Shown here: positions 17,400-36,000 of the stretch, one piece after another | Numbering within the stretch: the stretch's first letter is position 1 | Layout: each line of letters starts with the position of its first letter | Assembly: GCA_963668025.2 (NCBI GenBank) | Contig: CAXXTH010000010.1 | Location: forward strand, 1,024,001 to 1,088,000 | Source of the DNA: Candidatus Hydrogenedentota bacterium | GTDB lineage: Bacteria; Hydrogenedentota; Hydrogenedentia; Hydrogenedentales; SLHB01 | DNA length: 64,000 nucleotides | Direction: 5' to 3' | Notes under the pieces: generated by a model | The model's input: the letters and a program-made list of their open reading frames with translations, nothing else | Database searches by the model: none | Told to the model about the DNA's origin: nothing | Position numbers and translations under genes: made by a program

Positions 17400-17414
17400 A
17401 CAAGCGGCAGATCT

Positions 17415-17464: not shown

Positions 17465-17500
17465 GGATAACTCACAAAATGTACGCTTAAATCTACCTCT

Positions 17501-18181
17501 CTATTCGGCCGACAGCCGCCATTGTATTTCGAAGCGCTGGCCGAGGTTTTTCCATTGGATGGTGGGGCGGCCGTTTTCGATAGATTGGCGCTTAGGTTTC
17601 GGTTCCACACCGAGCACTTCGGCCTTCGGCGGCAGCACTACCGTGACTTCATTGTGACTGCCCAAACCAGGATGGTTGGCATCATGCCAAACACCGGATT
17701 CATCCCGATACAACCCATATCGCTTTCCTTCATGCTCAACGAAGCCCATAGGGGCTTGCCGCTTGGTCCGCACGGTATAGCAAAGCCGCCCGCCCTTGAA
17801 TACAGGCGGCTCCAATTCCGCCACATAACGCGTCATGGAACCGTCAGGCTCACTACGCCATGAAAGCGGCTTCCCTTCCCCATCCCACCCTTGTATGTCT
17901 TCCGCTGCCGGATTGTCTGGCTGCATGGCGGCAGCGCCACTTACGAACGAGACTTCGCGCTTCGGCGTATCGCCCTTGTAGGTCTTGTCAATATGGAGCA
18001 CCCATTCCGATGCGCCTTGGGCGTCAATATACGTGAATGCCTGAACCGTTCCGAGCGATTGCATGGAAAACGCATGGCCAAAATAACTGCCGCAGAGCAT
18101 GGCTGGAACCACAATAGCGATGCTTGCGATGCGGCTTACGGTCTTGACCGGCATTTGAGAGAATAAATTCATTGTCCGCAT
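17501..18181 (-). CDS. Hypothetical membrane-anchored or exported protein
   Basis: Third gene of the ECF sigma operon; N-terminal hydrophobic segment. Confidence 0.6.
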   Translation of the reverse strand: MRTMNLFSQMPVKTVSRIASIAIVVPAMLCGSYFGHAFSMQSLGTVQAFTYIDAQGASEWVLHIDKTYKGDTPKREVSFVSGAAAMQPDNPAAEDIQGWDGEGKPLSWRSEPDGSMTRYVAELEPPVFKGGRLCYTVRTKRQAPMGFVEHEGKRYGLYRDESGVWHDANHPGLGSHNEVTVVLPPKAEVLGVEPKPKRQSIENGRPTIQWKNLGQRFEIQWRLSAE

Positions 18182-19118: not shown

Positions 19119-19446
19119 CACTATAAGGTCGTTTCGCAAAGGACAGAGGTTCAACCAGAATCCATAGATAGAAATGGACGGAAAGAGCGTTATTTTGCAT
19201 ATCCTACCACCCGCCTGCACGTATGAAGTTAAAAATCATCATTGCATGGCGTATGGACCGATCTCCCAGATAATGAATTTCTCGCATTTTATAATAAAGG
19301 GCAACTATTTGCCGCCCTGTATACTGAACATATAGATAGGTTGACAAACAGAAAATGATCGGGTACGGTTATTGAGTCTGATGTGATGTGATGTGATGCT
19401 TTGGCCAGCACCTACCTATCCATCTTGTAGCCGAGGAGAACATGCT

Positions 19447-20890: not shown

Positions 20891-21173
20891 AACATGCAAT
20901 GAGCGTTTCGGGAAACGGCTTCGGGAAGGACTCGATAAGGCAGCCAAGGCGTACATAAACAGCAAGAACCTTGGAATACACAAAATGTAGTGAAGACTTT
21001 GAAAGATCAATCCAGCATTACCAGCCACTTACCAAAATAGCTGCGGATATTTGGCTAACAGCCCGAAAACGGATTCCCATTCAACAAGCCGAGATTGAAT
21101 GTCGTCACAAGTGTTGTCAGTAAAACAAGACCCCAAGGACTTGTTTTTACAAGCCCTTGGGGTTAAATACTTT

Positions 21174-21221
21174 AGGTGGTGGGCGGTACAGGACTCGAAC
21201 CAGTGACCTCTTGCATGTTAA
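21174..21221 (-). repeat. att site: duplicated 3' half of tRNA-Val
   Basis: aggtggtgggcggtacaggactcgaaccagtgacctcttgcatgttaa matches 35921-35968 with 3 mismatches. Confidence 0.93.
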
Positions 21222-21321
21222 TGAGTAATAGTTTGTATATTTGGTGTAACAACATGTTAGGGTAATATGCACAAAAAGCCTTGAGTTCCCTAGAGTTAAA
21301 GCCTGTTTTGTGTTTTACCTC

Positions 21322-21350
21322 TTGACACATATCGTTACATGGTGTATGCT
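21322..21350 (+). promoter_or_regulatory. Sigma70 promoter of the integrase
   Basis: TTGACA-N17-TATGCT. Confidence 0.65.
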
Positions 21351-21355
21351 TGAAA

Positions 21356-21378
21356 ATGATCCATGAGTGATCCATGGA
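21356..21378. repeat. Putative integrase arm-type binding repeats (TGATCCAT x2)
   Basis: aTGATCCATgagTGATCCATgga, matched by aTGATCCATaacTGATCCATgga at ~35833-35855. Confidence 0.7.
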
Positions 21379-21421
21379 TCAGAATGCGGCTGATCACCGC
21401 GAGGCGAGAAAGGGATCAACC

Positions 21422-22696
21422 ATGGGAAAGGTAAACCTAACAGCAAAGGCAATTCGAGACGCCTTGCCTACTGAGCGGGAATATACGCTCACCGATCTCG
21501 TTGTCCGAAACCTGGCTTTGCGTATCCTGCCTTCCGGCCAAAAAATCTACACGCTTTTATATATGGATCAGGCAGGCCGCCGTAAACGCCTTACGCTTGG
21601 CAACGCAGATGTTCTATCTGTTGCGCAGGCCCGAATACTCGCCAGGCAACGCCAGGCAGATATCGCAAAGGGCATTGACCCTTCCGAGGAAAAGAAAAAA
21701 GCCAAGCGCAACCTGACATTGCGGCAGTTCATGGACGAACATTACACGCCGTGGTTACTCAGTAATCTCAGAAGCGGTAAAGAAGTTGATAAATCTTTGC
21801 GGCGCGCGTTTAAGAGCCTTATGAATATGAAGTTGAGCGCCATATCCGCTTTTCATGTTGAAAAAGTACGCGCCGAACTCACGAAAGCAGGCAAGCGCGT
21901 GGCCTCAAATCGATATAGTGCGCTATTTAAAGCTCTCGTAGCCCGCGCCCATAAATGGGAATTCCTCGAAACGAATATCATTGCCGGTAAAGTATCTCGC
22001 CACAAAGAAGACCGGGGGCGTGTTCGATATCTAGATGCGGCAGAAGAGGCCCGCCTACTCGAAGCGCTCGACCGCAGACAGGATAAGCAGAGGGAAGAAC
22101 GCGCCCGTATGATTGCGTGGGCACAAAAACGGCATCTCCCGACGTTGCCCGATCTGAATGGGCTCACCTATACCGACTACCTTAAACCGCTCATACTCGC
22201 AGTGTTGTACTCCGGTATGCGCCGGGGTGAAGCGTTCAGCCTGCTATGGTCTGATATCAATTGGGAACAGAATACCATCACCATCCGCGCGGAGTCCGCG
22301 AAGTCGGAGAAAATGCGGCATATCCCTATGTGCGCCGCGCTACGGCAGGTGTTGGAGCAATGGCAAGCCCAAGGTATGGGGCAAGGTCTTGTGTTTCCAA
22401 GCCCCAAGACTGGCGGACGCCTCGACAATATTCAAACATCATGGGAGCGTCTCATAAAAGATGCGAAGATTGAAGGCTTCAGGTTTCATGATCTGCGGCA
22501 TTCGTTCGCATCAAGGCTGGCTATGGCGGGCGTGGACCTGAACACCATCCGCGAATTGCTTGGGCATTCGGATCTGAAAATGACCCTACGATACGCGCAC
22601 CTATCACCGGCCCGGACGCAAGCGGCGGTGAATGTGCTCGACCGAATTGACAACGTGCTCAAGTTTGAACGGAAAGGGGAAGGGGGGAATGTATGA
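21422..22696 (+). CDS. int: Tyrosine integrase with N-terminal arm-binding domain
   Basis: Catalytic motifs 'SGMRRGE', 'RFHDLRHSFASRL', 'LLGHSDLKMTLRYAH'. N-terminal 'RKRLTLG....LSVAQAR'. Confidence 0.95.
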   Translation: MGKVNLTAKAIRDALPTEREYTLTDLVVRNLALRILPSGQKIYTLLYMDQAGRRKRLTLGNADVLSVAQARILARQRQADIAKGIDPSEEKKKAKRNLTLRQFMDEHYTPWLLSNLRSGKEVDKSLRRAFKSLMNMKLSAISAFHVEKVRAELTKAGKRVASNRYSALFKALVARAHKWEFLETNIIAGKVSRHKEDRGRVRYLDAAEEARLLEALDRRQDKQREERARMIAWAQKRHLPTLPDLNGLTYTDYLKPLILAVLYSGMRRGEAFSLLWSDINWEQNTITIRAESAKSEKMRHIPMCAALRQVLEQWQAQGMGQGLVFPSPKTGGRLDNIQTSWERLIKDAKIEGFRFHDLRHSFASRLAMAGVDLNTIRELLGHSDLKMTLRYAHLSPARTQAAVNVLDRIDNVLKFERKGEGGNV

Positions 22697-23331
22697 GCAG
22701 TATTGCCCCGATTGAGAGCATCGAGGCCGTTATCCACACCGTACGTGGTGAACGGGTGATCTTCGATACAGACCTTGCAGAACTGTATGGCGTGCCCACA
22801 AAGGCGCTCAACCAAGCTATTAAACGCAACGCGGAACGTTTCCCGCAGGATTTTATGTTTCTCCTTACCCAGCAGGAGTTTACAGATTTGAGGTCACAAA
22901 TTGTGACCGCAAACGCGGGCGGTCGTGGTGGACGCCGCACCTTACCGTATGCCTTCACCGAACACGGGGCCATCATGGCCGCCAATGTCCTGAACTCAAA
23001 AAAGGCCGTGGAAATGAGCATGTATGTGGTGCGGGCATTCGTACACATGCGCCGCGCCTTAGCCGACCACAAGGAATTGGCCGCCCGTCTAGACGCCGTC
23101 GAGAAGCACATGGAAGAGCATGACGAATCCATCAAGGCATTGGTGCAGGCAATGCGGGCGCTCATGACGCCACCATCCAAGGAGCACAGGCAGATAGGCT
23201 TCAAGAAAAGCCATAAGACATTGCCCGGACATCTTCTGATGGCGGCGGGCTGGCGTGTGCTGGCCCGCCCTTATGGCTCTATTTGGTGTAAGGAGCGCGT
23301 GAAATGGATCAAACAACCGCAGGGTGCATGA
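22693..23331 (+). CDS. ORF6N-domain DNA-binding protein (antirepressor-like)
   Basis: 'RGERVIFDTDLAELYGVPTKALNQAIKRNAERFPQDFMF', 'PYAFTEHGAIMAANVLNS'. Confidence 0.92.
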   Translation: MSSIAPIESIEAVIHTVRGERVIFDTDLAELYGVPTKALNQAIKRNAERFPQDFMFLLTQQEFTDLRSQIVTANAGGRGGRRTLPYAFTEHGAIMAANVLNSKKAVEMSMYVVRAFVHMRRALADHKELAARLDAVEKHMEEHDESIKALVQAMRALMTPPSKEHRQIGFKKSHKTLPGHLLMAAGWRVLARPYGSIWCKERVKWIKQPQGA

Positions 23332-23759
23332 AGTATGGGTGTCTGACTTTGGTTGTACTGTTCGTTGCTTCTGTGGTAATCAACCTTATTACCGAAAACA
23401 GCAAATCATCCCCACCACCCAGGCCGCCCGCGCCCGTTTACCAGGCAATAGCACCCCGAAACCCAACGAACACACAATTACCACTTGACGTTTATGAACT
23501 CAAGATCGGAGCGATGTATCGAACCGCCAAGCCTGATACGCCGCTATGTCCGACACCAAACCCTCAAGCGCGATCATTTAATGAAGGGATGCAGGCTATT
23601 GCTCAGATACGGCTACTCCCATCAGGTATGCGCTTCAGGATATTGCAAAAGGCAGAATATCGAGGTGACGTATGGTATGCCGTTGAAACCGAATCGCCCA
23701 TGTTGCGAGGTTGGTTCAATTGCGTTGCGCTGGCAAGAAACGTAGAGGAAGTCAAGTGA
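23304..23759 (+). CDS. Membrane-anchored protein with Pro-rich linker and SH3-like C-terminus
   Basis: TM helix, 'PPPRPPAP', and 'LPSG.RFRIL......VWYAV.......GW'. Confidence 0.6.
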   Translation: MDQTTAGCMKYGCLTLVVLFVASVVINLITENSKSSPPPRPPAPVYQAIAPRNPTNTQLPLDVYELKIGAMYRTAKPDTPLCPTPNPQARSFNEGMQAIAQIRLLPSGMRFRILQKAEYRGDVWYAVETESPMLRGWFNCVALARNVEEVK

Positions 23760-23777
23760 CGTAGTGTTTACACCTCC

Positions 23778-23806
23778 TGGACTTTCCGCCGCAAACACAC
23801 TATACT
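23778..23806 (+). promoter_or_regulatory. Sigma70 promoter
   Basis: TGGACT-N17-TATACT. Confidence 0.6.
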
Positions 23807-23812
23807 GATACC

Positions 23813-23923
23813 GTAGGTTTAGGGTAGCCGTTCTTGATGGCCATCGAGACGGCTCACGGGAACCGCCACCCCGGCAGCACTCCGCCAAGGGTGGCGCTTC
23901 CCGGCCCGCAACAATAGGAGTGC
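23813..23923 (+). ncRNA. Candidate structured 5' leader RNA with anti-SD loop
   Basis: Two long hairpins; loop GCACTCC (23877-83) is complementary to GGAGTGC (23917-23) over the RBS. Confidence 0.45.
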
Positions 23924-23930
23924 ATACGAA

Positions 23931-24584
23931 ATGCCATTTAACTGGAACATCCCTCCACTACCCGAGCATATCGAAGCCCAACCCTTTCCTGTAATTCATA
24001 TCGAGAAGATTCTGCGCGGGATGGACCCGCCAGAACCGTGGGATATCGCCGAATGCTCTGCAATAATCGCCCGGTACAGCACGTTAGAAATATCTGAGCA
24101 AATGGCATGGTTTACGAATTTATATCTTGCCATGACTACGGAAATCGAACGTTGCAAGATACTGGTTATTGAGACCCTGGATAAAGAAATCCCTGTGATT
24201 TCCCGAGGTGATGCGGCCCGCATTGCGCGCAAATGGAATTACCCCGTACCGCCGAATTTTGAGCAGCCCGTGGCGGCGGAGATGAATCTGATATCTCTCG
24301 CGACAGCCAAAGAGATTACTATTAAGGCGTGTGGGTATAATGGAGATAAAGCCGAAAAACAAGCCCAGAACTTTATTGACCACCACAAGAATACTATTCT
24401 TGATAATGGCAAAAAGGGTAAAGCCCGTAAGATAGACGAAATATCGCTACGTGTTACCCTGCACAGATTTATGAGTAAGAAGGGCGACACCACAAATCGT
24501 CCCACTCCAACCAATACCCCTGATGGAGAGCCCAAAAACGCATCATTAAAACAGCTTGAAGCCATCAATCGCTCAAAATTCTAA
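23931..24584 (+). CDS. Hypothetical protein, possible C-terminal winged-helix (excisionase-like) region
   Basis: AGGAG RBS, 217 aa, basic 'DNGKKGKARKIDEISL' segment. Confidence 0.6.
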   Translation: MPFNWNIPPLPEHIEAQPFPVIHIEKILRGMDPPEPWDIAECSAIIARYSTLEISEQMAWFTNLYLAMTTEIERCKILVIETLDKEIPVISRGDAARIARKWNYPVPPNFEQPVAAEMNLISLATAKEITIKACGYNGDKAEKQAQNFIDHHKNTILDNGKKGKARKIDEISLRVTLHRFMSKKGDTTNRPTPTNTPDGEPKNASLKQLEAINRSKF

Positions 24585-24633
24585 TCCATTGGGAGATCCC
24601 CCGGCTCTGCCGGGGTCTGGAGTTTCTCCATTA

Positions 24634-26013
24634 TCAAGCAGCCGCGGCGCTTGCCATTGTTGCTCTGGAGGTTTCTATGCCGAGTGGACGGAGCAAATGG
24701 GGCTGTTCGTCCATCTCTTTTCTCAATAGAGTGATGAGAGCGAGGCACGATGGGCGTGTGGCGTGTTTTCGCCACCGTGGCAGCGGGGCGTATGCACTAT
24801 TTCGTTCGGGGCCAAAGGTTTTTATGGCGGCCAGTAGCAATGCGCTGTAGGCGGCGATGGCAAGCGGGGGCTGCTTGGGTATGGCATTGGGGTTCCAGAG
24901 CTGAGCTTGTCCGACGCCCAAGGTGTCCTTTTCCTCGCGATGGTTGACTTCAATCTGCCAGCGGTCGAAGTAGATCTGGAGCAGCCTCTGTGCGGCGTGA
25001 ACCCTGTCGGTACAAAGAAGGTAGGCTGGTTGCCGGTAATAAAGCTTACTGCTTTTCCGCTTGCGGTAGGGGGTGGGAGCGATAGCGAAAAGGCGGAGGG
25101 GAAGACGGCGCGCGCCGCCTTGCCAGTAGAGGGTCTTGATTTCCTTGTAGCGGACCTTGCGGCGTTTGCCGCCGTAGAATAGCTTCGTAGTCTTCCAGGG
25201 GATGCTATCGTCCTGGCGTACTTGCTCGGGGGTGAATTTTTCTTGGGCATAGAAACGCCGCGAACCCTCTGGAGCGCCAAAGCATAGGACTGCGTCCTTG
25301 CGGGCACGGGCGATGAGGTGGGTGCGGTCGCGTTCAGCGTCGAAGACGGTCTGGTTGCAAAAGCTGCCGTCGAGGGCCATGACCAAGGTTTTCTCCCTGG
25401 CGCCGACGGCGTCGAGGGATGCGCGCAAGGAGTCCATCATCGCCACGCAATGGGTTGAAAGGTTCTTCTCTTTACGGCGCTGCTTGTACGCCATCCACTC
25501 CTCCTCGCTTGCGCGCTTGCCAGGCTTCTTGGCGGGGGAAGGCTCCTCGAAACGCACGGGCAAGGCGCGGCAACTAAAGGCGCCGCCTTGGTGAAGCGGT
25601 ACGAGAAGGGAGGCCTGCAGGAAACGCAGGCCCAGAATGAGATTGGTGTGGAACGGCGGGGACAGGGGGTCGCGCTGATGAAAAGCCTGGACAATGCACC
25701 GGCCGGTCTTGTGCAGCTTGGTATCATCGACGGCGACGCCTACAAGCGGGTCTTCACACTGGGGCAGGGCTCCTTCCCAAATAGGGTCGAAGAGCTGCTG
25801 GGGGTCCCACTTGGCGCGGCCGTACATGTGGTATTCAGCCTGCCACGGCAGATTCTCGCGACCACAGGCCCAAAGGGTCCGCGTGATTGTGCGCCGCCCC
25901 AAACAGACCAGTGACCCAAGTCCCTGCCGCACCGCACGCACGGTGGTGCGCTCTTGGGCAAAAGCATCGCGCCAGCGCTCGGTAACGTTGAGCCATTCGT
26001 GTAAAAGACTCAT
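24634..26013 (-). CDS. DDE transposase (IS701/IS4-like)
   Basis: 'VAVDDT', 'LDGSF', and YREK-like 'YFDRWQIEVNHREEKDTLG'. Confidence 0.88.
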   Translation of the reverse strand: MSLLHEWLNVTERWRDAFAQERTTVRAVRQGLGSLVCLGRRTITRTLWACGRENLPWQAEYHMYGRAKWDPQQLFDPIWEGALPQCEDPLVGVAVDDTKLHKTGRCIVQAFHQRDPLSPPFHTNLILGLRFLQASLLVPLHQGGAFSCRALPVRFEEPSPAKKPGKRASEEEWMAYKQRRKEKNLSTHCVAMMDSLRASLDAVGAREKTLVMALDGSFCNQTVFDAERDRTHLIARARKDAVLCFGAPEGSRRFYAQEKFTPEQVRQDDSIPWKTTKLFYGGKRRKVRYKEIKTLYWQGGARRLPLRLFAIAPTPYRKRKSSKLYYRQPAYLLCTDRVHAAQRLLQIYFDRWQIEVNHREEKDTLGVGQAQLWNPNAIPKQPPLAIAAYSALLLAAIKTFGPERNSAYAPLPRWRKHATRPSCLALITLLRKEMDEQPHLLRPLGIETSRATMASAAAA

Positions 26014-26345
26014 CGCTTGCCTCCTTTGAGTCCGAAGGTGTTCTTGTCCGCGCGGACAAAGCGGTCTTCCCGAGCCACCTTTTTGGTGAGGGAAGACACC
26101 AGGCTTTCCCGGTCCACCGTAATGCCGAAGACCGCATGAATGCGACTCAGGATCTCATTGACATGAAGGGGATGAGCGGCCCTCAAGAGTATGTCATATG
26201 CCATATCTACTTGCGACATACTTGTTCTGGGTCGTGGCTCCTCCCTGGATTCTTCCCCCCTACGCAGACGGCGCACCGCCCGAAGCTGCGCCTCAAGCCC
26301 TTTTTCCATAGCCTCTAGGATCGTGTCACGCAATTCGTCATTCAT
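26010..26345 (-). CDS. Winged HTH (HARE-HTH-like) accessory protein of the IS
   Basis: 'AYDILLRAAHPLHVNEILSRI...FVRADKNTFGL'. Overlaps the transposase start; GGAGG RBS. Confidence 0.75.
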   Translation of the reverse strand: MNDELRDTILEAMEKGLEAQLRAVRRLRRGEESREEPRPRTSMSQVDMAYDILLRAAHPLHVNEILSRIHAVFGITVDRESLVSSLTKKVAREDRFVRADKNTFGLKGGKR

Positions 26346-26532
26346 GGCGCCGCCCTCCTGCCTAGCCAACAAGATTGTAGCACAAACGAGTCGGTATGTC
26401 AATATATCTTTTCAATGACCGGCCTATTCGGCGAAAGGGAAGCTACGACAAAGACGATAAGCTGTGCGATGGCAAGAGAAAAAGCGTGTCCACCTCGCCC
26501 AAAAAAGGTAGAAACTCCAGGCCCCCGACTCC

Positions 26533-28371
26533 GGGCCTGTCGATGTAGTGCGCCGGGGTAGAATTTATATAGACATATAACTCGATTTCTAGTAGAATAG
26601 AATTTATTATTGGTGTCACCAGGGAAACCCACATGAACGCACGAGACATTCTATTCGCCACTCCGAAGGCGCAGCGGCATCAAATGGTGCTGTATCCCCA
26701 GTATCTGGACGAGATGCTCCCGGCGGATGCGCCCATCCGGATATTCGCACGGATTTTGGATGAACTGGATTGGAGCGCTTGGGAGGCTGCCTATGTGGGC
26801 GTTGGCCAGCCGCCGATCCATCCACATTACCTGGCGGGAGCTATCCTGTACGGGCTGATGCACCGCGTGCGTTCGTCGCGCGAGCTGGAAATGGCGGCGT
26901 GCAAGCACCTGGATTTCATATGGTTCCTTGAAGGGTTCACGCCCGATCACTCCACGTTCGCCAAATTCCGGGTGCGCCACGCCAAAGCCATCGACGAGTT
27001 GAAGCGGCAAATCGCCCAGCTCCTGCTAGGTGAGCGCGAGAAGCCGCTATTGGAATTGCTCATCGACGGCACCCGTTTGCGGGCCGACAGCGACCGCCAC
27101 GGGGCGCGCACGGCCGGGACCATCGAGAAGATTATAAGGGAACTGGACCGCCGGATGGAGGAAATGCGGCGCAATGATGCCCAAGCCCTTCCTGAAACCG
27201 AGTTTCTGGCGGGCATGGAGCCGGATGGAGACGTTGCGGAACAGTTGGAAAAGGCCAGCCAGGAAATCGCGCGGCTCGAAACGAAACGCAAACAGCTTCA
27301 AAAAGCCCTCGACGCCGCCCGCAGGCGAGACGCGAAGTCCCAAGAGCACAATGGCAAGAACGCCAAACCCGTCCGAGTGCCCGTGAGCGATCCGGACTCC
27401 CAAATCACCCCCAACAAAGAAGGGGGCTACGCGCCGAATTACACCCCCGTGGCCGCGATTGACGCGCAAACAGGCGCTATCCTCTATGATGATGTGCTGG
27501 CGGGTTCCGACGAGGCCAGCGCCGTTTGCCCGGCGGTGGAGGCCGTTGAAGCCCTTACGGGCGAGAAGCCTTGCGCAATCGCCGCCGACGGCAATTTTGC
27601 CGCGGGCCAAGTGCTCGAAGCCCTTGAGGCCCAAGGGATAGAGGCCTACATGCCCACCCGCTCGGCCTCTGGGGCGGACAATCCGGCTCAACGCCCCGAG
27701 CCCGCGCTTCCCGTGGCCCAAGAAGCGGTGGAACGCCTGCCCAAACAAGGCGGCCAGTTCGCCCGCACCGCATTTGTGTACGACGAACAAGCCGACTCCT
27801 ACCATTGCCCCATGGGCCACGAGATGGCGGCCTCGAAACACGGCACGGACAAAGACGGCGTTTCATACGCCACCTACCAATGCGAAGCCTGCCCCGGCTG
27901 CCCGCTGGCGGGGCAATGCATCAAAGGAAAGGCCACGCACCGGACCATCACCCGCGACGAACACGAACCGCTGCGCGAGGCCGCGGACGAGCGCATGAAG
28001 ACCGAAGAAGGCCGGGCCATCTACAAGAAACGCGCCCCGGGGATCGAAGGATTGTTCGGCGTCATCAAGTCGTGCATGGGCATCCGCCGCTTCGCCCGGC
28101 GCGGCCTGGAGAAAGTCCGGTGCGACTGGTCCTGGATTTGCACCGCGTATACCCTCAAAAAACTTCTGGCCCGCAAGGCAAACATGGCCACCGGCTTCCC
28201 CCAAGGCGGCCATCCTGGCGTAAACACGGTCCTGGCGGGGCTTCATGCCGCAGCTAGAGCCGTAGCCTATGCTTTTTTCCCACGAATAACGTCGAATTGG
28301 CATCCCCGGCGCATTCCTGTCGATGCGGTGGAGATATACCCTATCGAGGCGGCTGCTTAATCGACAGGCCC
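26533..28371 (+). mobile_element. IS1182-family insertion sequence
   Basis: TIRs GGGCCTGTCGAT / ATCGACAGGCCC; TCC (or CTCC) duplicated on both flanks. Confidence 0.88.
26633..28360 (+). CDS. IS1182-family transposase
   Basis: 'SSRELE', 'PDHSTFAKFR', 'IDGT', 'ADGNF', Cys-rich insertion, 'YKKRAPGIEGLFGVIK...G.RRF'. Confidence 0.92.
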   Translation: MNARDILFATPKAQRHQMVLYPQYLDEMLPADAPIRIFARILDELDWSAWEAAYVGVGQPPIHPHYLAGAILYGLMHRVRSSRELEMAACKHLDFIWFLEGFTPDHSTFAKFRVRHAKAIDELKRQIAQLLLGEREKPLLELLIDGTRLRADSDRHGARTAGTIEKIIRELDRRMEEMRRNDAQALPETEFLAGMEPDGDVAEQLEKASQEIARLETKRKQLQKALDAARRRDAKSQEHNGKNAKPVRVPVSDPDSQITPNKEGGYAPNYTPVAAIDAQTGAILYDDVLAGSDEASAVCPAVEAVEALTGEKPCAIAADGNFAAGQVLEALEAQGIEAYMPTRSASGADNPAQRPEPALPVAQEAVERLPKQGGQFARTAFVYDEQADSYHCPMGHEMAASKHGTDKDGVSYATYQCEACPGCPLAGQCIKGKATHRTITRDEHEPLREAADERMKTEEGRAIYKKRAPGIEGLFGVIKSCMGIRRFARRGLEKVRCDWSWICTAYTLKKLLARKANMATGFPQGGHPGVNTVLAGLHAAARAVAYAFFPRITSNWHPRRIPVDAVEIYPIEAAA

Positions 28372-28857
28372 TCCACCGGTGCGCTCAGTGTAACCGGCGC
28401 GGAGAACCTAAGAAAGCCTAGTATTCAAGAGGCGCTTAGGCAGTTAAACGCACCGGTAACAGACAAACTGAATACCAACAGAGCGGCACGCGTGAGGTAT
28501 TTGAGCGCTGTAATGCGCGGCGAAGTGGCCGAAGACGACGGCGCTATTCCCTCCGTTGCCGTCCGCGTGAGGGCTTGCGAAATTCTGGCCCGCATCGAGG
28601 GTGACATGGTCACTCGCATCGAGGCGACGGTCCAGCGTGCGCCCGATCCGCAGTTCGACCTATCGAAGCTCACACGCGATCAAGTGGTGCTTGTGGAGTG
28701 CCTGCAAACCCGGGCATTGGTGAATCCTGATGAGCATAGTCGCTATCAGATGACAATGCTACAGGAGGAATTCGACAGATGGCCGGATGAACGGAAGTTG
28801 GCCATTTTTGTGAAGAAACCCGAACCCGCCGAAACCGGCGAAACCCAAGGAGAATGA
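28372..28857 (+). pseudogene. terS: Phage terminase small subunit, N-terminal HTH lost
   Basis: 'GAENLRKPSIQEAL', 'YLSAVMRGE', 'RVRACEILAR', 'DLSKLT'. The 5' end is cut by IS insertions. Confidence 0.75.
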
Positions 28858-29396
28858 ATATGTCATATCTTGAAGATGGAAAACTTGCCGATCTGCCACC
28901 AATCACGATGCCACGTTTCGTGGATGATACCGCTTCACTGGTTGACGCAAAGGCCAAAGAAATGGGCGTGGCGCTTCACCCTATTCAAAAAATGCGCATC
29001 GTTGAAGATGTTCACGCCTATTGCCAGCAGAAAATCGATCATGGGCGCGCGCCTAGCCCGCAAGAATTCCACGACGCCATTCGTCGCGAAATTTGGCAAC
29101 TGACCCCGGTTGGCCGCAACGTGACGGAAGGCATAAAGCAGCGGCAAGCCGCCGCCGCCCAGGTCGCGGCCAAGCAAGCCGCCGATGCCGCCGCGAAGGC
29201 CGCAGCCCGGATTGAAAACGAAAAACAGGCGTTCCTTGCCAGCGCCCGCAAGGCATGGCCCGGCAATCATGCCGATTTTGACAAGCGGGCTGACGCGCTT
29301 TGGGCTGACGAATGCGAGCGCCGGACAATCGAGAAAGTGACCAATACGCAGGCCACCACGGCGCGCGTGGCGGGCGCTTATCGGGGGGCAATCTGA
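28854..29396 (+). CDS. Hypothetical helical protein
   Basis: AGGAG RBS, ATGA overlap with terS, Ala-rich coiled segment. Confidence 0.75.
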   Translation: MNMSYLEDGKLADLPPITMPRFVDDTASLVDAKAKEMGVALHPIQKMRIVEDVHAYCQQKIDHGRAPSPQEFHDAIRREIWQLTPVGRNVTEGIKQRQAAAAQVAAKQAADAAAKAAARIENEKQAFLASARKAWPGNHADFDKRADALWADECERRTIEKVTNTQATTARVAGAYRGAI

Positions 29397-29773
29397 TGAA
29401 ACCTCTCGATTTCGATGACAAAATGTGGCGCACTCTCGCCGATGGACGGGGTGCGTTACTGGACCAGGACATTGCCGCACTATATGGTGTTTCGGTTCGT
29501 GAAGTCCGCAAGGTTGTGGTGAGACATAAACACCTTTTGGGCGATGACGTGGTTGTCCTAGACGCCACGGAACGCCTCAAATTCGCCAAAGAAGCCGGAT
29601 GTAGGCCCGCAGATATCGAGATAGCGCTTGCGGGCCATTCAGCGCTGCTTCTTGCTCCGTACTTCGATTCAAAAAAAGCGCAGGCGATTCACAAAACGAT
29701 TGTAGATGCGTTTTTCGTGAAAAGCTTTGCCGAATTAACCGCCCGGTTAAGCGCCGCCAAGGAAGGGGTATAG
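29396..29773 (+). CDS. Divergent ORF6N-like protein
   Basis: 'LLDQDIAALYGVSVREVRKVVVRH', 'DSKKAQAIHKTIVDAF'. TGATG overlap with the upstream gene. Confidence 0.65.
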   Translation: MKPLDFDDKMWRTLADGRGALLDQDIAALYGVSVREVRKVVVRHKHLLGDDVVVLDATERLKFAKEAGCRPADIEIALAGHSALLLAPYFDSKKAQAIHKTIVDAFFVKSFAELTARLSAAKEGV

Positions 29774-29774
29774 C

Positions 29775-32579
29775 ATGGACCTTGGAACCTTAGCTATCCG
29801 TTTTCAGTCTGACGGCCTAATCCAGCTCAATAACGACATGTCGAATCTCCGCACGCAGGCAAACGCGAACTTCGGAGAGATCACCCGTACCGTGGGCGCA
29901 GGCATGACGACGGCGGGTGCGGCCATCACCGGCGCGCTCGGGCTGTCTGCGAAGGCCGCCAGCGACTTTGGTGCTGGCTTAGCGAATCTTGGTACGCTTG
30001 GAGTAACGAACCTGGATGAAATGGGTGAAGCCGTCCTGGATTACTCGGTCGCTATGGGCCAGGACGCATGCCAAGCAAACGAAAATCTATATCAACTCGT
30101 TTCGCGCGACGTTCCAAAAGACAATTTGACCGATGTTCTGACCGCATCCGCCAAAGGTGCGGCGGTAGGCGTAGGCACCGTGAACGACGCGCTTGTGCTA
30201 GGCACTTCAGTATTAAACAACTACTCCCGGGACATGGTAAAAGGCGCGGATTACACACAGAAATTCGAGCAAGTCATGGGTATAGCGGCGTCCGCGATCC
30301 AGGTGGGCGCTACCACGATGGGGGAATTGGGCACCACGATAGGCCGGGTGGCTCCCATTGCGTCTAAGGCGGGCATCTCCCTGGAAGACCTATTCGCGTC
30401 CGTTGCGACGATTACATCCACTGGCACGCAGACCAGCGAGGCGGTATCCGGGCTGAAAGCGGCGATCTCGAACATCATATCTCCGACAACCGAGGCGTCC
30501 AAGACCGCAGAGGCGCTCGGGCTTCAGTTTGACGCGGCGGCCATAAAGTCTAAGGGATGGTCCGGCTTCCTACAAGAGCTTCACACGAAGGTCAATGAGG
30601 GTGTGCCGAAACTCGGGCAATACAAAGCGCAATTGCAGCAGCAGGCCCAGCAGATGGGGCTTACTGCCGAAAAGACCAAGGAATTGCGCGATAAGTTCAA
30701 GTCGCTTGAAGGCGTGTCGGATGACTCAATCACGGTATATGCCCGGTTATTCGGCAGCGTAGAAGCATTAAATGCCGTCCTGGCGCTCACGTCCGAAAGC
30801 GGGGCCAAGAAGATGGTTGCCGCCCAGAAGGACATGGCGAACGGAATGGAATTACTAAACGACCGCTACGGTGAGTGGGCGAAGAATAATCCCGAGCTTG
30901 CGTTCAAGCAGTTGCAGGCGGCCACAAAGGCGCTGGCGATTTCCGTTGGGCAGCTATTACTCCCAGCGCTCACGAAGATAGTGAATGTCGTTCGGCCAGT
31001 GGTGAATGCGTTCCGCGATATCGTGTCCGCGTCCGGGTGGGTAGGCACGGCGTTTGTGTCTATTATTGGCGGCGCCGGATTGGTAGGCTTGGCCCTTGGC
31101 CCAGTAATCTATTCAGCCACGAATCTCGTTGGCGCTTTCAAGCTCTTAACGGGCGGGCAAATACTCACGTCACTGACGAGCATGGCCACCGGCGTGAAAT
31201 CCATCGGCGTAGCAGCCACGGCGGCGCGTATTCCGATGCTCGCAATGGGCGGCAGCTTGACTGCAACAGCGGCGACCGCAGGCGCGCTTGCAATCGCCAT
31301 AGGGGCGGCTGGAACATTTATCGCTGCCGATATCGTGATGTTCAAGAAGTGGCGCGATGCAGTTGAGCAGCGCAAAGAATCAGAGCAAAAACTTCAGGAC
31401 AAGATCATTGAGCGCGCCAAGCAGCTCGAGGCCCAGGGCGTGTATATCGATTGGGCAGCCATGAAGGAAATGACCGCCGATCAGCAAGTCATGTATATGA
31501 ACGACCAGAAGGCAGCACAAGAAAAGCAACAATTCCAAGACTGGATGACACGCACTAACCAGAAAGCACTCACCGAAGAACAAGACGCCCAGCGCCACAA
31601 CATCCAGCTAAACTGGAACCTAACCAGCGAAGAGGCCTACAACGCCTCACTGTCTGACGCTGACGCCGCCACGAAACTGAAGCTAGTCCAGGCCGATGAA
31701 ACGCACACGCAGCTTATCCTTGAACAACTCGGTATCCGCACAGCCGAAAGCCGCACACAGTTAAGCGAGCAAGCGCAGGCCGCCATTGCGGCTGCCGAAC
31801 AGCAGAAGGCGGCAACTGAGACGGTGCTACAGTCACTTGACAAAAACATAGGCGCGATTACCGAACTCGGAACCGTTGCGAAGTCCACCGGAGACGCCAC
31901 GAAGACCGCCACGGACACCATGAAGGACGGCTTCCAGGAAGCATCCAAAGATGTTCCGAAATACTGCAAGATCATCACGAGCGACAAAGACGGCATCGTG
32001 ATTATCAAGAAGTCATCCGCAGACCTGCGAGAAGAGATCGGCAACGTGCCCGGCGCTATGCGCAACGGCATGAGTGAGGCGGCGAAATACGTAAGCCAGT
32101 ATTGCGCAGATATGAACGCCAGTATCCAAGAGGTGATCGACAAACTCAACTCCATAGACCCGTCCGTGCGGCATTCGCCCTCCATAAACGACCGTATCGA
32201 GGTGGGCTTATCCCAGATGGGCGGCCTATTCAATTCCGCCTTGGACGGGATCACCTCGAAGTTCGCGAGTTCACGGAACACCATGGCCAGCCTGGCGGCG
32301 TCACTATCCGCCATGATGGGCAGCATAGGCTCTACGGGCTACACGGTGCGCAACGGCGACGTGGTGAAATCATCCAGCGCTACAGGCACAACGACCGCCC
32401 CGGGTGCCGAAGCCCCGATATCGCCCGTTGGCAACACAAACCCTATCGGCATATACCCACCACAGGTGACCGTGAACATCAATCACCCGGTGCTGCATAA
32501 GGACGCGGATATCAACGTGTTGTTATCGAAGATGGGGCAGATGCTCCGCGCGCAGAAACTCGCTAAAGGGGTGGGGTGA
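29775..32579 (+). CDS. Phage tail tape measure protein (TP901/PhageMin_Tail type)
   Basis: N-terminal 'MDLGTLAIRF', Ala/Gly/Thr-rich core ('GISLEDLFASVATIT..G..TSEA..GLK', 'LFGSVEAL'), central hydrophobic helices, 'HSPS', C-terminal 'VTVNINHP'. Confidence 0.9.
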   Translation: MDLGTLAIRFQSDGLIQLNNDMSNLRTQANANFGEITRTVGAGMTTAGAAITGALGLSAKAASDFGAGLANLGTLGVTNLDEMGEAVLDYSVAMGQDACQANENLYQLVSRDVPKDNLTDVLTASAKGAAVGVGTVNDALVLGTSVLNNYSRDMVKGADYTQKFEQVMGIAASAIQVGATTMGELGTTIGRVAPIASKAGISLEDLFASVATITSTGTQTSEAVSGLKAAISNIISPTTEASKTAEALGLQFDAAAIKSKGWSGFLQELHTKVNEGVPKLGQYKAQLQQQAQQMGLTAEKTKELRDKFKSLEGVSDDSITVYARLFGSVEALNAVLALTSESGAKKMVAAQKDMANGMELLNDRYGEWAKNNPELAFKQLQAATKALAISVGQLLLPALTKIVNVVRPVVNAFRDIVSASGWVGTAFVSIIGGAGLVGLALGPVIYSATNLVGAFKLLTGGQILTSLTSMATGVKSIGVAATAARIPMLAMGGSLTATAATAGALAIAIGAAGTFIAADIVMFKKWRDAVEQRKESEQKLQDKIIERAKQLEAQGVYIDWAAMKEMTADQQVMYMNDQKAAQEKQQFQDWMTRTNQKALTEEQDAQRHNIQLNWNLTSEEAYNASLSDADAATKLKLVQADETHTQLILEQLGIRTAESRTQLSEQAQAAIAAAEQQKAATETVLQSLDKNIGAITELGTVAKSTGDATKTATDTMKDGFQEASKDVPKYCKIITSDKDGIVIIKKSSADLREEIGNVPGAMRNGMSEAAKYVSQYCADMNASIQEVIDKLNSIDPSVRHSPSINDRIEVGLSQMGGLFNSALDGITSKFASSRNTMASLAASLSAMMGSIGSTGYTVRNGDVVKSSSATGTTTAPGAEAPISPVGNTNPIGIYPPQVTVNINHPVLHKDADINVLLSKMGQMLRAQKLAKGVG

Positions 32580-33022
32580 TGGCGGATACAAATGCGTGGC
32601 TTGAGTGGAATGGCGATGAAATCATGATACGCCTGCGGAATGCCACGAAGGACAGCATCAAGAAGATCGCGCTGGCCGTCGAAGCTCAGGCCAAGGTGAA
32701 TATTGAAAAACCATTCCTGCATAAGCAAGGCCGTAAACGCAAAGATAGCCGCGACTGGAAGGGCCGATTTCTCAAAAAAGGATCATCCGCAGATGAGCAA
32801 CTCATGCGAGGCCAGATCGACACAGGCGCGATGATCAACTCCACGCGCGCGGTGTTCAATGGTCTGCCAGTGGGTACTGAGGCCGCTGTTATTTCCCCCC
32901 AGGAATATGCGGAGTACCAAGAAGCTATCCGCCCGTTCCTTATGCCCGCCGTTGATGAGGTCGTTTCAGATAAAGCGGAAGGGATCATTAAGAACCAGTT
33001 TAAAGCGGACGGCATAGATTAG
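32579..33022 (+). CDS. HK97-gp10-like phage head-tail protein
   Basis: 'A..VEAQAK', 'IDTGAMINS', 'EYAEYQE..RPFLMPA'. Confidence 0.7.
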   Translation: MADTNAWLEWNGDEIMIRLRNATKDSIKKIALAVEAQAKVNIEKPFLHKQGRKRKDSRDWKGRFLKKGSSADEQLMRGQIDTGAMINSTRAVFNGLPVGTEAAVISPQEYAEYQEAIRPFLMPAVDEVVSDKAEGIIKNQFKADGID

Positions 33023-33061
33023 CCCGACACCCGGGCGGCCCGTGATGCTACCCGGTTTTAT

Positions 33062-33104
33062 GCCCCCAGCGGTTCGCTCCCAGTGGGCCGCTGGGGGCTT
33101 TGGT
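33062..33104 (+). terminator. Intrinsic terminator ending the terS-TMP-gp10 operon
   Basis: GCCCCCAGCGG...CCGCTGGGGGC followed by TTTGGTGTTT. Confidence 0.6.
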
Positions 33105-33127
33105 GTTTCTAGTTATGCTTAGCAATA

Positions 33128-34949
33128 GAGGCATTTGCGAAATAGCGTGGTTTGCGAACGCGCGGACGGTGCGGGCACACGCGGAGCGGTTTTCGCCTGT
33201 GGCAATGGGATTACGCCTCCGCTACGGGTGCAATAAATCATGCAGGAGGTTCGCGTGTAGGACCCTTGCGGCCCGAATGGGCATGGTTTGCCCTTGATTC
33301 GGGCCATCATTGCTTGTGCGGATTCGATGTGATCTATGCGGCGCGGGGCTGTCCGAGGAGCGAGCGCATGCGTTCTGCCTGGCCGGCTTCGAGCCATCCC
33401 AGGGCCATGCCGAGCATGACGAGGAGGGCTAATCCGGTGCGGGCGCGCATCTTTTTCATACCGCGGATGTAGTGGCGCTCGAATCCGTATGCGCCGTCGA
33501 GTCGGCTGTTGACTCGCTCGATGGCGGTGCGGTGTTTGTATTCGCGGCGCCAGGATTTGGCGCTGCGGGGCAGGGGGGTAAAGATGCGCCGGTCGATAGC
33601 GATGGGCACGCGGACAATCCGTCCGTGTTCGGGCTGGCATCCTTGGTTGCAGAGGTCTTGCTGGGTACAGGCGCTCCCGCGTGCCTTGGCTGGGCAACGG
33701 TATTTCAAGGTTCCCCGATCTTGCTCGAATCCTTGGTAGGCCATGGAATCATAGTTGTCGCGTTCGTTTGGGGCGCCGTTACGACACCGGCAGAGGACTT
33801 CACCTCGTTCGGTATGGAAGATCGTGTCTACCCGTTCGGGATATAAAGGGCGGGGCCGTTCCGGTTCTTCTTTCCAGGTCGCCCGGATGTCCACGATGGG
33901 CCGGATTTCATGTTCCTCGAAGAGGCCCTTGTTGTTGGCTTCGGAATCATAGCCCTTGTCGGCGCTGAGGTACTCGGCGCGTTGGACGAGTTCGGGGTGG
34001 CGCGCGTCGAGAGCCGCCACGAGGGGCAGCAGAAAGGGCGAGTCGTTGGCGCTGGCTTTCGTGACCGCGTAGCCCAGCGGCAATTCATATTTCGTGTCCA
34101 CGATGAGGTGCAGCTTGTAGCCGAACCACCGTTTGACCTTCTCCCAGGGCGTGCCGTCCTTGTGAACGCCCTTGTAGGTTTTCGTGCCCCAGTCTGCGTC
34201 GCGGTCGCGCCGCCCGTCCGGCTCTTCGTTTTCCAGGACCGCGTCTTTGCGCGGAGGCTTGGCGTGGGTTTGGATGGCTTTCGAGTCTACGGCCAGACGC
34301 ACCCCGAGATCCGGCAAGCGTTCCATCAGCCGGACGATGAGCGCGTCGAACATCCGGTCCACTTCTTTCCAGTGGCGCAGTAATCTGGCGAAGAACCGCG
34401 TGTACACCCATTCGGGCGGGACCGCCTTGGCGCCCCGCAACACGTCGAATCCGCACAACTGGCGCAATTGCCCGTTTCGGGCTAGTTCGCGGCGCAGGCT
34501 TTCGACGCCGTCGTGCTGGAAGACGATCCCCGCCAGTATGCTGTTCCACATCGCGCGGATAGGATAATCGTCGCGCCGCCCCTTGCGTTCGGCTTCCATC
34601 GCCCGCATCAAATCTTCATCCGGCAGCGCCGCCAGCAACAGGTTCAGCCGATCCAGATCCGACGCCGCGTCGACCTGGTTCCACGAGAACAACCCCATTT
34701 GGTGTATAATGGCCATCGCAAACGTCTCCTTGGTGTGTGCGTGGTTATGTGGTCAACTATACTACAATCACACACGGGAGACGTTACGCCTTTTCCCGCT
34801 CGCCGAGGGCATTTGGGGTGATTTTTCACAAAAAATCCTTATTCATGCCCCCGCCAAGCCCCTTTCCCCGCATTCTCCGGGGTAGGCGCCAATTCCGCCG
34901 CTTTGTAAACCCTTGTCAATACGGATTTTCTTTATTTCGCAAATGCCTC
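33128..34949 (-). mobile_element. IS (IS5/IS1182-like, DUF772 plus DDE)
   Basis: 17-bp perfect TIR GAGGCATTTGCGAAATA; 7-bp target duplication AGCAATA (33121-27 and 34950-56). Confidence 0.9.
33334..34716 (-). CDS. DDE transposase
   Basis: 'LAVDSK', 'FGYKLHLIVD', 'SADKGYD', 'YKHRTAIERVNSRL'. Confidence 0.92.
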   Translation of the reverse strand: MAIIHQMGLFSWNQVDAASDLDRLNLLLAALPDEDLMRAMEAERKGRRDDYPIRAMWNSILAGIVFQHDGVESLRRELARNGQLRQLCGFDVLRGAKAVPPEWVYTRFFARLLRHWKEVDRMFDALIVRLMERLPDLGVRLAVDSKAIQTHAKPPRKDAVLENEEPDGRRDRDADWGTKTYKGVHKDGTPWEKVKRWFGYKLHLIVDTKYELPLGYAVTKASANDSPFLLPLVAALDARHPELVQRAEYLSADKGYDSEANNKGLFEEHEIRPIVDIRATWKEEPERPRPLYPERVDTIFHTERGEVLCRCRNGAPNERDNYDSMAYQGFEQDRGTLKYRCPAKARGSACTQQDLCNQGCQPEHGRIVRVPIAIDRRIFTPLPRSAKSWRREYKHRTAIERVNSRLDGAYGFERHYIRGMKKMRARTGLALLVMLGMALGWLEAGQAERMRSLLGQPRAA

Positions 34950-34964
34950 AGCAATAAACAAACA

Positions 34965-34981
34965 GTTCCCTTTTTGGGAAC
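34965..34981. promoter_or_regulatory. Putative HigA operator, next to a TATACT -10 box
   Basis: GTTCCC-TTTTT-GGGAAC inverted repeat upstream of higB. Confidence 0.6.
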
Positions 34982-35016
34982 CATGTGGTATACTTTAGCA
35001 AAGGGATAGAATCTCA

Positions 35017-35328
35017 ATGCGAATAATCAAACGGAAAAGCTTGTTGGAGTTTTGGGCGAAACATCCAGATTCAGAACAGGCGTTAAAGGCTTGGTTTACT
35101 GAAGTTGAAAAAGCCACATGGAAAAACAGCGATGATGTCAAGAGAACATACAGATATGCGAGCATCATCAATTCAGATCGTGTGGTGTTCAATATCTGTG
35201 GCAACAAGTATCGCCTTATAGTGAGTATAAACTACCCAGTGGGTGTAGTCTACGTGAAGTTTGTCGGCACCCATAGCGAGTATGATCGTATTGACGCGGA
35301 GGCCGTGAAATGGAAGCAAAAGTCATAA
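35017..35328 (+). CDS. higB: HigB toxin (RelE-fold mRNase)
   Basis: 'MRII...L.EFW.KHPD....L.AW', 'RVVFNICGNKYRLIV', 'FVGTHSEYDRID'. Confidence 0.93.
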   Translation: MRIIKRKSLLEFWAKHPDSEQALKAWFTEVEKATWKNSDDVKRTYRYASIINSDRVVFNICGNKYRLIVSINYPVGVVYVKFVGTHSEYDRIDAEAVKWKQKS

Positions 35329-35696
35329 AAACAGAAGCGGATTACGAAGCCGCTCTTGAGATGGTAGAGCGCTATATGGATGCTCAAGAAGGAACACCTG
35401 AAGCTGAAGCGCTCGAATTGTGGTCGCTTCTCGTGGAAGAATACGAGAAACGAACCTATCCCATTGATATGCCCGATCCTATTGCGGCGATTCGTTTCCG
35501 TATGGAGCAAGAAGGGCTTGATGCGAGCGATATGCAAACCTACCTAGGCAGTAAAAGCAAGGTATCTGAGGTACTGAGTGGGAAGCGCTCCCTTAGTCTT
35601 CCCATGATACGAAAGCTGGAAAATGGACTAGGGATACCCGCAGAGGTACTCATACGTGAAAATCCATCGAAAAGGCAAAGCATGCCCGCTTGTTGA
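35310..35696 (+). CDS. higA: HigA antitoxin (HTH)
   Basis: 'IKTEADYEAAL', 'PDPIAAIRFRMEQ', 'VSEVLSGKRSLSL.MIRKL'. Confidence 0.93.
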   Translation: MEAKVIKTEADYEAALEMVERYMDAQEGTPEAEALELWSLLVEEYEKRTYPIDMPDPIAAIRFRMEQEGLDASDMQTYLGSKSKVSEVLSGKRSLSLPMIRKLENGLGIPAEVLIRENPSKRQSMPAC

Positions 35697-35832
35697 TATG
35701 ATTGCTTCTGATATTACTACGGAACCCGCAAATGAAGTATCTTGATCCACTATCAGGTTGAGCCATATCACCCAGAGGCTTCCAGTGTCCCTCACTGGCG
35801 AGTAGAATCCACACGCTAGGAATCCTTTCAGA

Positions 35833-35855
35833 ATGATCCATAACTGATCCATGGA
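35833..35855. repeat. Putative integrase arm-type repeats (right end)
   Basis: aTGATCCATaacTGATCCATgga. Confidence 0.7.
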
Positions 35856-35923
35856 AGGATTTTGACTAGAAAAGGCCTCAAGGACCATCTCTTGTAAGTC
35901 CTTGAGGCCTAGCGCTTTAAAGG

Positions 35924-36000
35924 TGGTGGGCGGTACTGGACTTGAACCAGTGACCTCTTGCATGTCAAGCAAGCACTCTAACCACCTGAGCTAACCGCCC
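35924..36000 (-). tRNA. tRNA-Val (GAC)
   Basis: 77-nt cloverleaf, anticodon arm CTTGC-TT-GAC-AT-GCAAG, encoded CCA; TTGACA/TATGAT promoter at 36014-36043. Confidence 0.97.

Follow-up and report, generated by a model that had tools for sequence, protein, structure and literature searches.

A phage-satellite-like element with its own tape measure and neck-like genes at a tRNA-Val gene of a Candidatus Hydrogenedentota bacterium

What use would a compact integrated element, in which no capsid gene is recognised, have for a phage tape measure protein (TMP)? The question was raised by a 64,000-nucleotide (nt) stretch of the genome of a Candidatus Hydrogenedentota bacterium (assembly GCA_963668025.2, contig CAXXTH010000010.1, positions 1,024,001 to 1,088,000; G000:C10:1024001-1088000 in our notation), which at its full length is called the window. 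Within it lies element A (14,795 bp, window 21174-35968), inserted at a tRNA-Val gene and carrying genes for an integrase, a TMP and part of a small terminase subunit (TerS). On comparative evidence we consider it probable, if by a modest measure, that A is one of two copies of a satellite resembling the phage-inducible chromosomal islands (PICIs), and that this satellite would bring its own TMP and neck protein into chimeric tails.

Element A is bounded by 48-nt direct repeats (21174-21221 and 35921-35968) that are identical at 45/48 positions. The left repeat, attL, is a displaced 3' half of tRNA-Val and was aligned with attL of the second copy, element B; the right repeat, attR (in the feature at 35921-36000, minus strand), is the 3' part of tRNA-Val(GAC), which was the single tRNA found by ARAGORN in the window (35924-36000, minus strand). 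A 41-nt core of the repeat occurred exactly twice in the 64 kb and not at all in 100 shuffles. A 24-nt motif with two TGATCCAT half-sites also had two matches in the window and none in shuffles, one in the attL arm (21355-21378, plus strand, overlapping the integrase start) and one in the attR arm (35832-35855, plus strand); these motifs are plausible candidates for arm-type sites of the integrase, which has an Arm-DNA-bind_3 domain. The initial annotation had described a compact, att-bounded element at tRNA-Val with a TMP and no capsid or tail machinery, and that description held, for Pfam and PHROG scans of the open reading frames (ORFs) of A recognised no capsid, portal, large terminase subunit (TerL) or other tail genes.

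The TMP gene (29775-32579, plus strand) is intact and encodes a 934 amino acid (aa) protein of the TP901/PhageMin_Tail family. PhageMin_Tail (PF10145) was matched at E = 3.8e-25 (89.4 bits, with a cut-off of 33.2) and phrog_28 at 4e-37; 13 of the 14 PHROG families matched are annotated as TMP, and annotated TMPs of cultured siphophages were matched as well. Its stop codon overlaps the start of a 148-aa gene (32576-33022, plus strand), which was called gp10-like from the outset. That name, here HK97-gp10-like (Neck1 / tail completion), is based on matches to phrog_5 (4e-4 in A, and 1.8e-5 for its homologue in the phage locus L010), on 20 of 30 ESM Atlas look-alikes that lie in PF04883-bearing HK97-gp10_like clusters (score 0.95), and on the position of the gene in related phages; it finds no counterpart in Pfam at E up to 1 or below E 0.1 in a PDB profile search, and the structure model (pLDDT 55.6) was too poor for a fold search. 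The two genes close a series of five that runs from a terS remnant through an orphan 180-aa gene (28854-29396, plus strand) and a 126-aa ORF6N-like gene (29393-29773, plus strand, directly 5' of TMP), with start and stop codons that overlap or abut. Because of this packing and of the terminator that follows (a 16-bp stem in B, in a stretch aligning with window 32998-33112 just past the gp10-like stop), the five genes look like one transcription unit.

A TMP paralogue with 94% aa identity was found about 400 kb from the window copy on the same contig, and its surroundings (locus L003) hold element B (15,038 bp, G000:C10 at about 643.2-658.2 kb). Element B is inserted at tRNA-Val(TAC) between perfect 48-nt repeats (L003 3184-3231 and 18174-18221), with the double TGATCCAT motif in both arms. 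Its genes are, in order, the integrase, an HTH_17/phrog_66 excisionase-regulator, small ORFs that include a lipoprotein-like and a ParB-HTH-like gene, a D5-type helicase, three small ORFs, TerS, the 180-aa gene, an ORF6N-like gene, TMP, gp10-like, one insertion sequence (IS) and the tRNA. The regulator fell below the HTH_17 cut-off (E 4e-4) and matched phrog_66 ("excisionase and transcriptional regulator") at 2.6e-8; the helicase matched D5_N/DUF5906/Pox_D5 and phrog_1156 (1.2e-89), with no primase domain detected by family scans of the replication module; and TerS is intact (Terminase_2, 1.5e-15). No capsid, portal, TerL, major tail, Dit or lysis gene was recognised in scans of the B ORFs, none of which exceeds 347 aa beyond the integrase, the IS transposase and TMP, so that there is no room for a capsid, portal or TerL gene. 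This copy bears on two statements of the initial annotation. The view that the element fits no known satellite family is not supported in that form, as the intact copy has a PICI chassis (integrase, AlpA-like regulator, D5-type helicase and TerS). The thought that it might be a one-off deletion remnant, with all close homologues in complete prophages, met with the opposite finding: the only close TMP homologue (94% aa) is in compact element B, and the same terS-to-gp10 operon recurs at another tRNA-Val gene of the same genome.

Comparison with B also shows what has happened to A, in which three insertion sequences were delimited. IS#1 (24617-26521, minus strand, with an inverted repeat) comprises a DDE_5 transposase gene (24634-26013) and an HTH ORF (26010-26402) and has many genome copies at 99% or more; IS#2 (26533-28372, plus strand, DDE_Tnp_1_6/DUF772 transposase at 26633-28360) cuts terS and has four more copies at 99.9% elsewhere in the genome; and IS#3 (33128-34949, minus strand, DDE_Tnp_1 transposase at 33334-34716) has perfect 17-nt inverted repeats and about 30 genome copies. 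Together they sum to 5,567 bp and leave 9,228 bp of element, close to the 5.6 and 9 kb estimated beforehand. Homology between A and B restarts precisely where IS#2 ends on the right, at a point corresponding to codon 33 of B terS; some 32 codons at the start of the gene were removed by IS#2. The initial annotation was otherwise essentially right in its gene list, and its terS is a 3' remnant (28372-28857, plus strand) with a weak match to phrog_51 (1.5e-4) and 94% aa identity to residues 33-187 of B TerS; its identity follows from the Terminase_2 match of that intact paralogue. A further 3.9 kb, which holds the helicase module in B, is missing from A beside IS#1 and IS#2. With these losses the window copy lacks both its whole replication module and the DNA-binding end of TerS, and A is judged defective, in line with the suspicion that it had been crippled by IS insertion. 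IS are abundant throughout the genome, in at least four types at 99-100% identity, and they struck the two satellite copies independently (the IS of B lies at L003 15906-17597).

The operon was compared between the copies for signs that it had been maintained. From terS to gp10-like, A and B are collinear at 88-91% nt identity (88.5% from the terS 3' part to the 180-aa gene, 91% from TMP to gp10-like), the integrase region is 95.7% identical (95% aa identity over aligned codons) and the attR arm 88%. Simple Nei-Gojobori estimates from the two sequences gave dN/dS of 0.19 for TMP (121 synonymous and 79 non-synonymous differences in 934 codons), 0.18 for gp10-like, 0.25 for terS, 0.19 for int, 0.44 for the 180-aa gene and 0.41 for the ORF6N-like gene, where a value below 1 records past selection and not present function. 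On these estimates TMP, gp10-like, terS and int evolved under purifying selection since the split of A and B. The ORF6N-like gene (window 29393-29773, compared with L003 12294-12677) has only 45% aa identity and a dS of 1.28, with neighbours 77-94% identical, and looks like a swapped specificity allele. The initial annotation named its product a second ORF6N protein; the match is below the Pfam threshold (E 0.0097), and the protein does align with the first ORF6N protein of A (BLASTP 6e-8). Another cassette varies at one position between a 151-aa gene in A and a lipoprotein-like 119-aa gene in B. The pair thereby sorts the element into genes that were kept (TMP, gp10-like, terS and int) and genes that were swapped (ORF6N-like and the membrane cassettes). 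The mosaic of dS along the operon, from 0.15 to 1.28, indicates recombination with other, unseen alleles; and as the operon junctions are common to A and B, the compact layout predates their divergence (dS about 0.2).

The origin of the two tail genes was sought among phages. Three uncultured siphophages, the IMG/VR loci L010 and L013 and the metagenome locus L108, carry the closest relatives of both proteins: for TMP the identity is 43-48%, over at least the N-terminal half, and for the gp10-like protein 38-41%. The TMP aligns with that of L010 over residues 3-932. These loci have complete tail modules in the order gp10-like, 141-aa protein, major tail, chaperone, TMP, Dit and further tail proteins, whereas the element keeps two of the genes, in the opposite order and joined to the terS operon: in the phage loci gp10-like precedes the major tail gene, the chaperone and TMP, and in the element it comes immediately after TMP. 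A simple deletion of a collinear prophage cannot explain this inversion. The L010/L013 siphophage lineage is likely to be both the source lineage and the type of the helper, and we infer that TMP and gp10-like may be a co-adapted pair taken from one phage lineage. Both the A and B forms of the gp10-like protein have a 23-residue basic insertion (about residues 63-85) which is not in the L010/L013 homologues.

These comparisons bear on a rival explanation that we hold to be unlikely, namely that the element is the decayed remnant of a degraded prophage or of a larger capsid-forming satellite, whose head and tail genes were lost before a duplication or an integrase-driven move, so that TMP and gp10-like would be leftovers without a current transfer role. 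Decay of this kind would agree with the damage to both copies in a genome rich in active IS, with the failure to find a helper or other phage structural genes in that genome, with the occurrence of readable TMP relatives other than those of B and a locus L105 in normal phage tail modules, and with a family not found outside this genome. It sits poorly with an operon common to both copies and under purifying selection since (dN/dS 0.18-0.25), with a TMP/gp10-like order inverted relative to the source phages, with insertion at two separate tRNA-Val genes, where repeats and arm motifs are intact, and with a dS mosaic that speaks for exchange with other alleles. Purifying selection, mosaic divergence and rearranged gene order are the grounds for thinking that the layout was maintained, and they suggest a selected design rather than a one-off wreck.

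If the element is a satellite, it most likely works like a PICI in excision, replication and redirection of packaging. A siphovirus helper related to L010/L013 would trigger excision and replication, and the satellite TerS would direct the helper large terminase onto satellite DNA. The satellite TMP and its matched gp10-like protein would then replace their helper counterparts, giving chimeric tails, as shown for the PICI-like elements (PLEs) of Vibrio, with a length or entry properties set by the satellite. The benefit could lie in avoiding TMP-targeted exclusion, in interfering with the helper, or in the two together.

We compared this proposal with known satellites as the papers cited describe them. 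The PLEs come closest in proposed mechanism, as capsid-less satellites with their own TMP and TMP partners. They encode a TMP, a tail assembly chaperone and a baseplate hub (BhuB), and experiments showed that their TMP is built into shorter chimeric tails from helper parts, by which they evade a PLE-encoded inhibitor of the helper TMP; the helper is contractile-tailed (PMC12987554). The partner in the element, in contrast, is an HK97-gp10-like neck or tail-completion protein, with no recognisable chaperone, and relatives of its TMP lie in siphophage modules with Dit and major tail protein. It further differs in its P4-type tyrosine integrase, with insertion at a tRNA gene, and in carrying TerS. 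The PLEs use a serine recombinase and are not known to have a TerS. The likeness to PLEs was drawn from their published descriptions.

The chassis is closest to the PICIs of the Gram-negative type. PICIs have five core components, and elements with four or five of them are known; they are typically without structural genes, and the SatelliteFinder program treats tail profiles as "forbidden" for PICIs and capsid-forming PICIs (cf-PICIs) (PMC10085698). Element B has the terminal integrase, a putative AlpA-like regulator, a replication-type helicase, TerS and att repeats, and a size of about 13 kb without its IS. It departs from a PICI in its TMP and neck protein, and no capsid-morphogenesis gene was recognised in it; judged from the published rule, the SatelliteFinder PICI model would probably reject it. 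The cf-PICIs encode capsid, portal, head-tail adaptor and connector, and TerL (PMC10085698), none of which was found in A or B, yet they share a PICI-related chassis, and putative tmp genes are indicated for some of them and for PLE-like elements in the legend to Extended Data Fig. 10 of PMC12987554. A preprint proposes that the EPIPs of Mycolicibacterium aichiense are satellites with TMP, TerS and changed tail lengths (PMC12822802). The uniqueness of a satellite TMP that the initial annotation had implied was therefore overstated, TMP genes having been predicted in cf-PICIs (PMC12987554) and reported in EPIPs (PMC12822802). The EPIPs occur in Actinobacteria and have a serine integrase, scaffold, major capsid protein, head-to-tail adaptor and stopper, unlike the element, in which none of these is present. 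With P4-like satellites the element shares a P4-type integrase, an AlpA-like protein and a D5 helicase. The P4 core includes the capsid-size and transactivation genes Psu, Delta and Sid and the alpha primase-helicase; no other P4 core family was found in Pfam and PHROG scans of all ORFs. Nor is the element a complete temperate prophage, as head, TerL, full tail and lysis modules were not found in A or B.

A second rival, which we rate as quite improbable, makes the element an interference island, in which TMP, gp10-like and TerS would act mainly as decoy or poison subunits against siphophage tail assembly and packaging, in an abortive defence without transduction of the element itself. Interference with tail assembly by mobile elements is documented for Rta of PLE11 (PMC12987554) and for the further systems Tai and Tab (PMC11364771, PMC10884400). 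In the same direction point the higB-higA toxin-antitoxin pair of A (35017-35696, plus strand), cargo that is not in B, the variable membrane or lipoprotein cassettes, and the lack of recognisable capsid-size or chaperone genes. On the other hand, a full-length 934-aa TMP that is conserved end to end with phage TMPs would be costly as a mere decoy, and TerS, integrase, AlpA-like regulator and helicase form a standard satellite mobilisation kit; moreover, interference and satellite transfer are compatible, and the PLE does both.

Several ORFs had no detectable family, i.e., the 180-aa orphan and the B ORFs of 184, 243, 143, 95 and 101 aa. This leaves some ground for a third rival, which we think very improbable indeed, that of a small autonomous virus with unrecognised capsid proteins among the orphans or, alternatively, of a TMP-like protein with a non-tail function. 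The largest unassigned ORF (243 aa) is, however, too short for a portal or large terminase, and the 180-aa protein is predicted to be all-helical (AlphaFold, pLDDT 80.2) and not of the HK97 fold; a non-tail function is opposed by the TMP matches to cultured siphophages and to 13 PHROG families annotated as TMP. The 180-aa orphan found only itself and its paralogue in a word-indexed search of 5.8 billion proteins, and only its own cluster in a HMMER search of 1.84 billion representatives; there was nothing credible in Pfam at E up to 1, no Foldseek match of its model at E up to 0.001 in BFVD or PDB, and no usable match in the ESM Atlas.

The satellite reading must also be weighed with how little of the family was found elsewhere. 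Among 5.8 billion proteins the best TMP matches outside this genome had 31-48% identity, and the full-length relatives (P0002, P0004 and P0006, from Logan contigs) had 31-36%. The TerS search gave 7 matches, one being the remnant in the window, and the rest had at most 52% identity and covered no more than 55% of the query. Nothing was found when IMG/VR was scanned with either TerS or gp10-like as a single protein. One of the 206 stretches from the genome-contig scan was a relative, in a normal head-tail module; metagenome scans gave 0/422 stretches in the first and 6/76 in the second, of which five had TMPs of the L010/L013 type, and the six loci had no match to the integrase, helicase or TerS of the element. 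When 86 fetched loci were searched by tblastn with all element proteins, only gp10-like matches and a weak integrase match were obtained; locus L104 (genome G029) was screened by tblastn. Within the phylum, TMP was detected in 6/61 genomes with the protein query and in 10/133 and then 12/135 with the profile (the last count at E up to 1e-8 and including G000), the matches outside this genome being weak or partial; the one in G123:C580 lies in an ordinary phage module, as does, beyond the phylum, that in contig L090 of a Deltaproteobacteria metagenome-assembled genome. The D5_N helicase was present in 28/135 genomes, and TMP and D5_N lay within 4 kb on one contig in two, G000 (element B) and G050.

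The contig of G050 (G050:C447, 1-10316; locus L105) comes from another bacterial family within the same order and ends inside TMP. It begins with a 5'-cut integrase, small ORFs, a DUF1580 protein, an 846-aa Toprim/D5 primase-helicase and a 184-aa ORF, and continues with a Phage_Mu_F head-morphogenesis protein, a 113-aa ORF, an HTH_23 protein of small-terminase-like build and the TMP start, which is about 2.3 kb past the helicase with no capsid, portal or TerL between them. From its gene content L105 is read as a distant analogue, which shows this theme independently, though incompletely.

The following points weigh against the satellite reading, in addition to what was said of the dN/dS values. 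The family appears nearly confined to this genome: close TMP relatives are missing from the 135 genomes of the phylum, no TerS match exceeded 52% identity (over 32% of the length), neither the 80 IMG/VR loci kept nor the 6 from metagenomes included a compact relative, and the distant TMP relatives (31-48%) with readable context, B and L105 aside, are all in ordinary siphophage tail modules. Both copies are damaged, B less so than A: in B the last codons of gp10-like have given way to an IS, and the helicase is broken into ORFs of 126 and 347 aa, where a related island on contig C6 has one 478-aa ORF. The proteins just 5' of TMP in L010, L013 and L103, examined as possible chaperones, are homologous mutually and to no element protein, and no capsid-size gene was recognised among the element proteins; no hub-like gene was found in the element. 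The genome, which is 93.75% complete in 24 contigs, had no match to Phage_capsid (PF05065), Phage_portal (PF04860), TerL_ATPase (PF03354) or Terminase_6N (PF03237) anywhere, and ORFs of the related phages matched only TMP, gp10-like and helicases in it. Four public runs that hold the element (contigs, from two studies) gave no usable attP or empty-site junction, no RNA data set was listed as containing it, and there was no sign of excision, a circular form, packaging or expression.

No TMP beyond those of A and B was found genome-wide, and only the TerS of B. As no resident helper was recognised in the families searched, the helper would be external or of other families. A junction of 21209 with 35976 in the public contigs was considered as an empty attB and rejected, for its shorter side had 25 letters with 19 foreign letters between, and it was read as other tRNA-Val genes; a junction of 33101 with 35789 matches the layout of element B.

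The left part of A contains the P4-type tyrosine integrase (21374-22696, plus strand, 440 aa, with an arm-binding domain; PF00589 9e-31, PF13356 3e-16, phrog_1 6e-61), and an ORF6N anti-repressor-like gene (22693-23331, plus strand, 212 aa; PF10543 6e-32, phrog_4792 3.7e-25) where B has the AlpA-like regulator. These are followed by the 151-aa protein (23304-23759, plus strand), with an N-terminal hydrophobic segment and no Pfam or PHROG family above threshold, and by a 217-aa protein of no assigned function (23931-24584, plus strand), which is weakly like the 243-aa protein of B (33% over 73 aa, E 1.8e-5). Two other islands of the genome have related genes. In one (G000:C18:52000-71500, locus L091) a related and apparently disrupted integrase at about 16240-18165 (minus strand), recovered by tblastn as two pieces with 54% and 81% aa identity to that of A, is followed by an ORF6N gene 87% identical to that of A; the two adjoin large plus-strand genes of 815, 339 and 897 aa, and a tRNA-Asn lies at L091 3193-3268. 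By these matches the left module of A looks recombinant with the L091 island type. The other, on contig C6 (G000:C6:89000-108500, locus L092), has a P4-type integrase about 39% identical to that of A, a 2,161-aa ORF and the unsplit 478-aa D5-type helicase, with 70% and 48% identity to the two B ORFs; the island has no TMP.

Directly outside attL is a gene for an MtaB methanol-cobalamin methyltransferase (PF12176, 2.6e-169; window 19393-20832), and on the other side a gene for a 1,459-aa protein with two malectin-domain stretches (36074-40453, minus strand) adjoins the tRNA-Val gene. A hairpin with a T-run lies outside attL in both A (21131-21173) and B (L003 3141-3183); the two are about 84% identical although they stand at different tRNA-Val genes, and the attR arm that belongs to the element itself has a comparable hairpin. 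Related elements that once occupied these sites, or replaced their terminators, may have left the flank hairpins behind.

Whether A and B stand for an unrecognised satellite family of this under-sampled, largely uncultured phylum, in which a PICI-type chassis is combined with a late operon joining terS, TMP, gp10-like, the orphan and an ORF6N-like specificity factor, is a tentative proposal that we regard as possible and rather doubtful. Manipulation of tails by satellites was until recently unknown, and has been shown for the Vibrio PLEs and suggested for some cf-PICIs and for EPIPs; a satellite-encoded TMP is itself already known, being in print for all three. The element would extend such manipulation to a capsid-less PICI-type chassis, a siphovirus-type tail and a neck partner. 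If this proposal is true, the remodelling of a non-contractile (siphovirus) tail from its head-proximal end, and not from the baseplate, would be a first for a satellite, and particles of the element would possibly escape TMP-targeted exclusion or defence in helper-carrying cells. Because SatelliteFinder forbids tail genes, by the rule given in PMC10085698, satellites that bear a TMP will probably be dropped or classed as defective prophages, and families of such satellites may be systematically overlooked.

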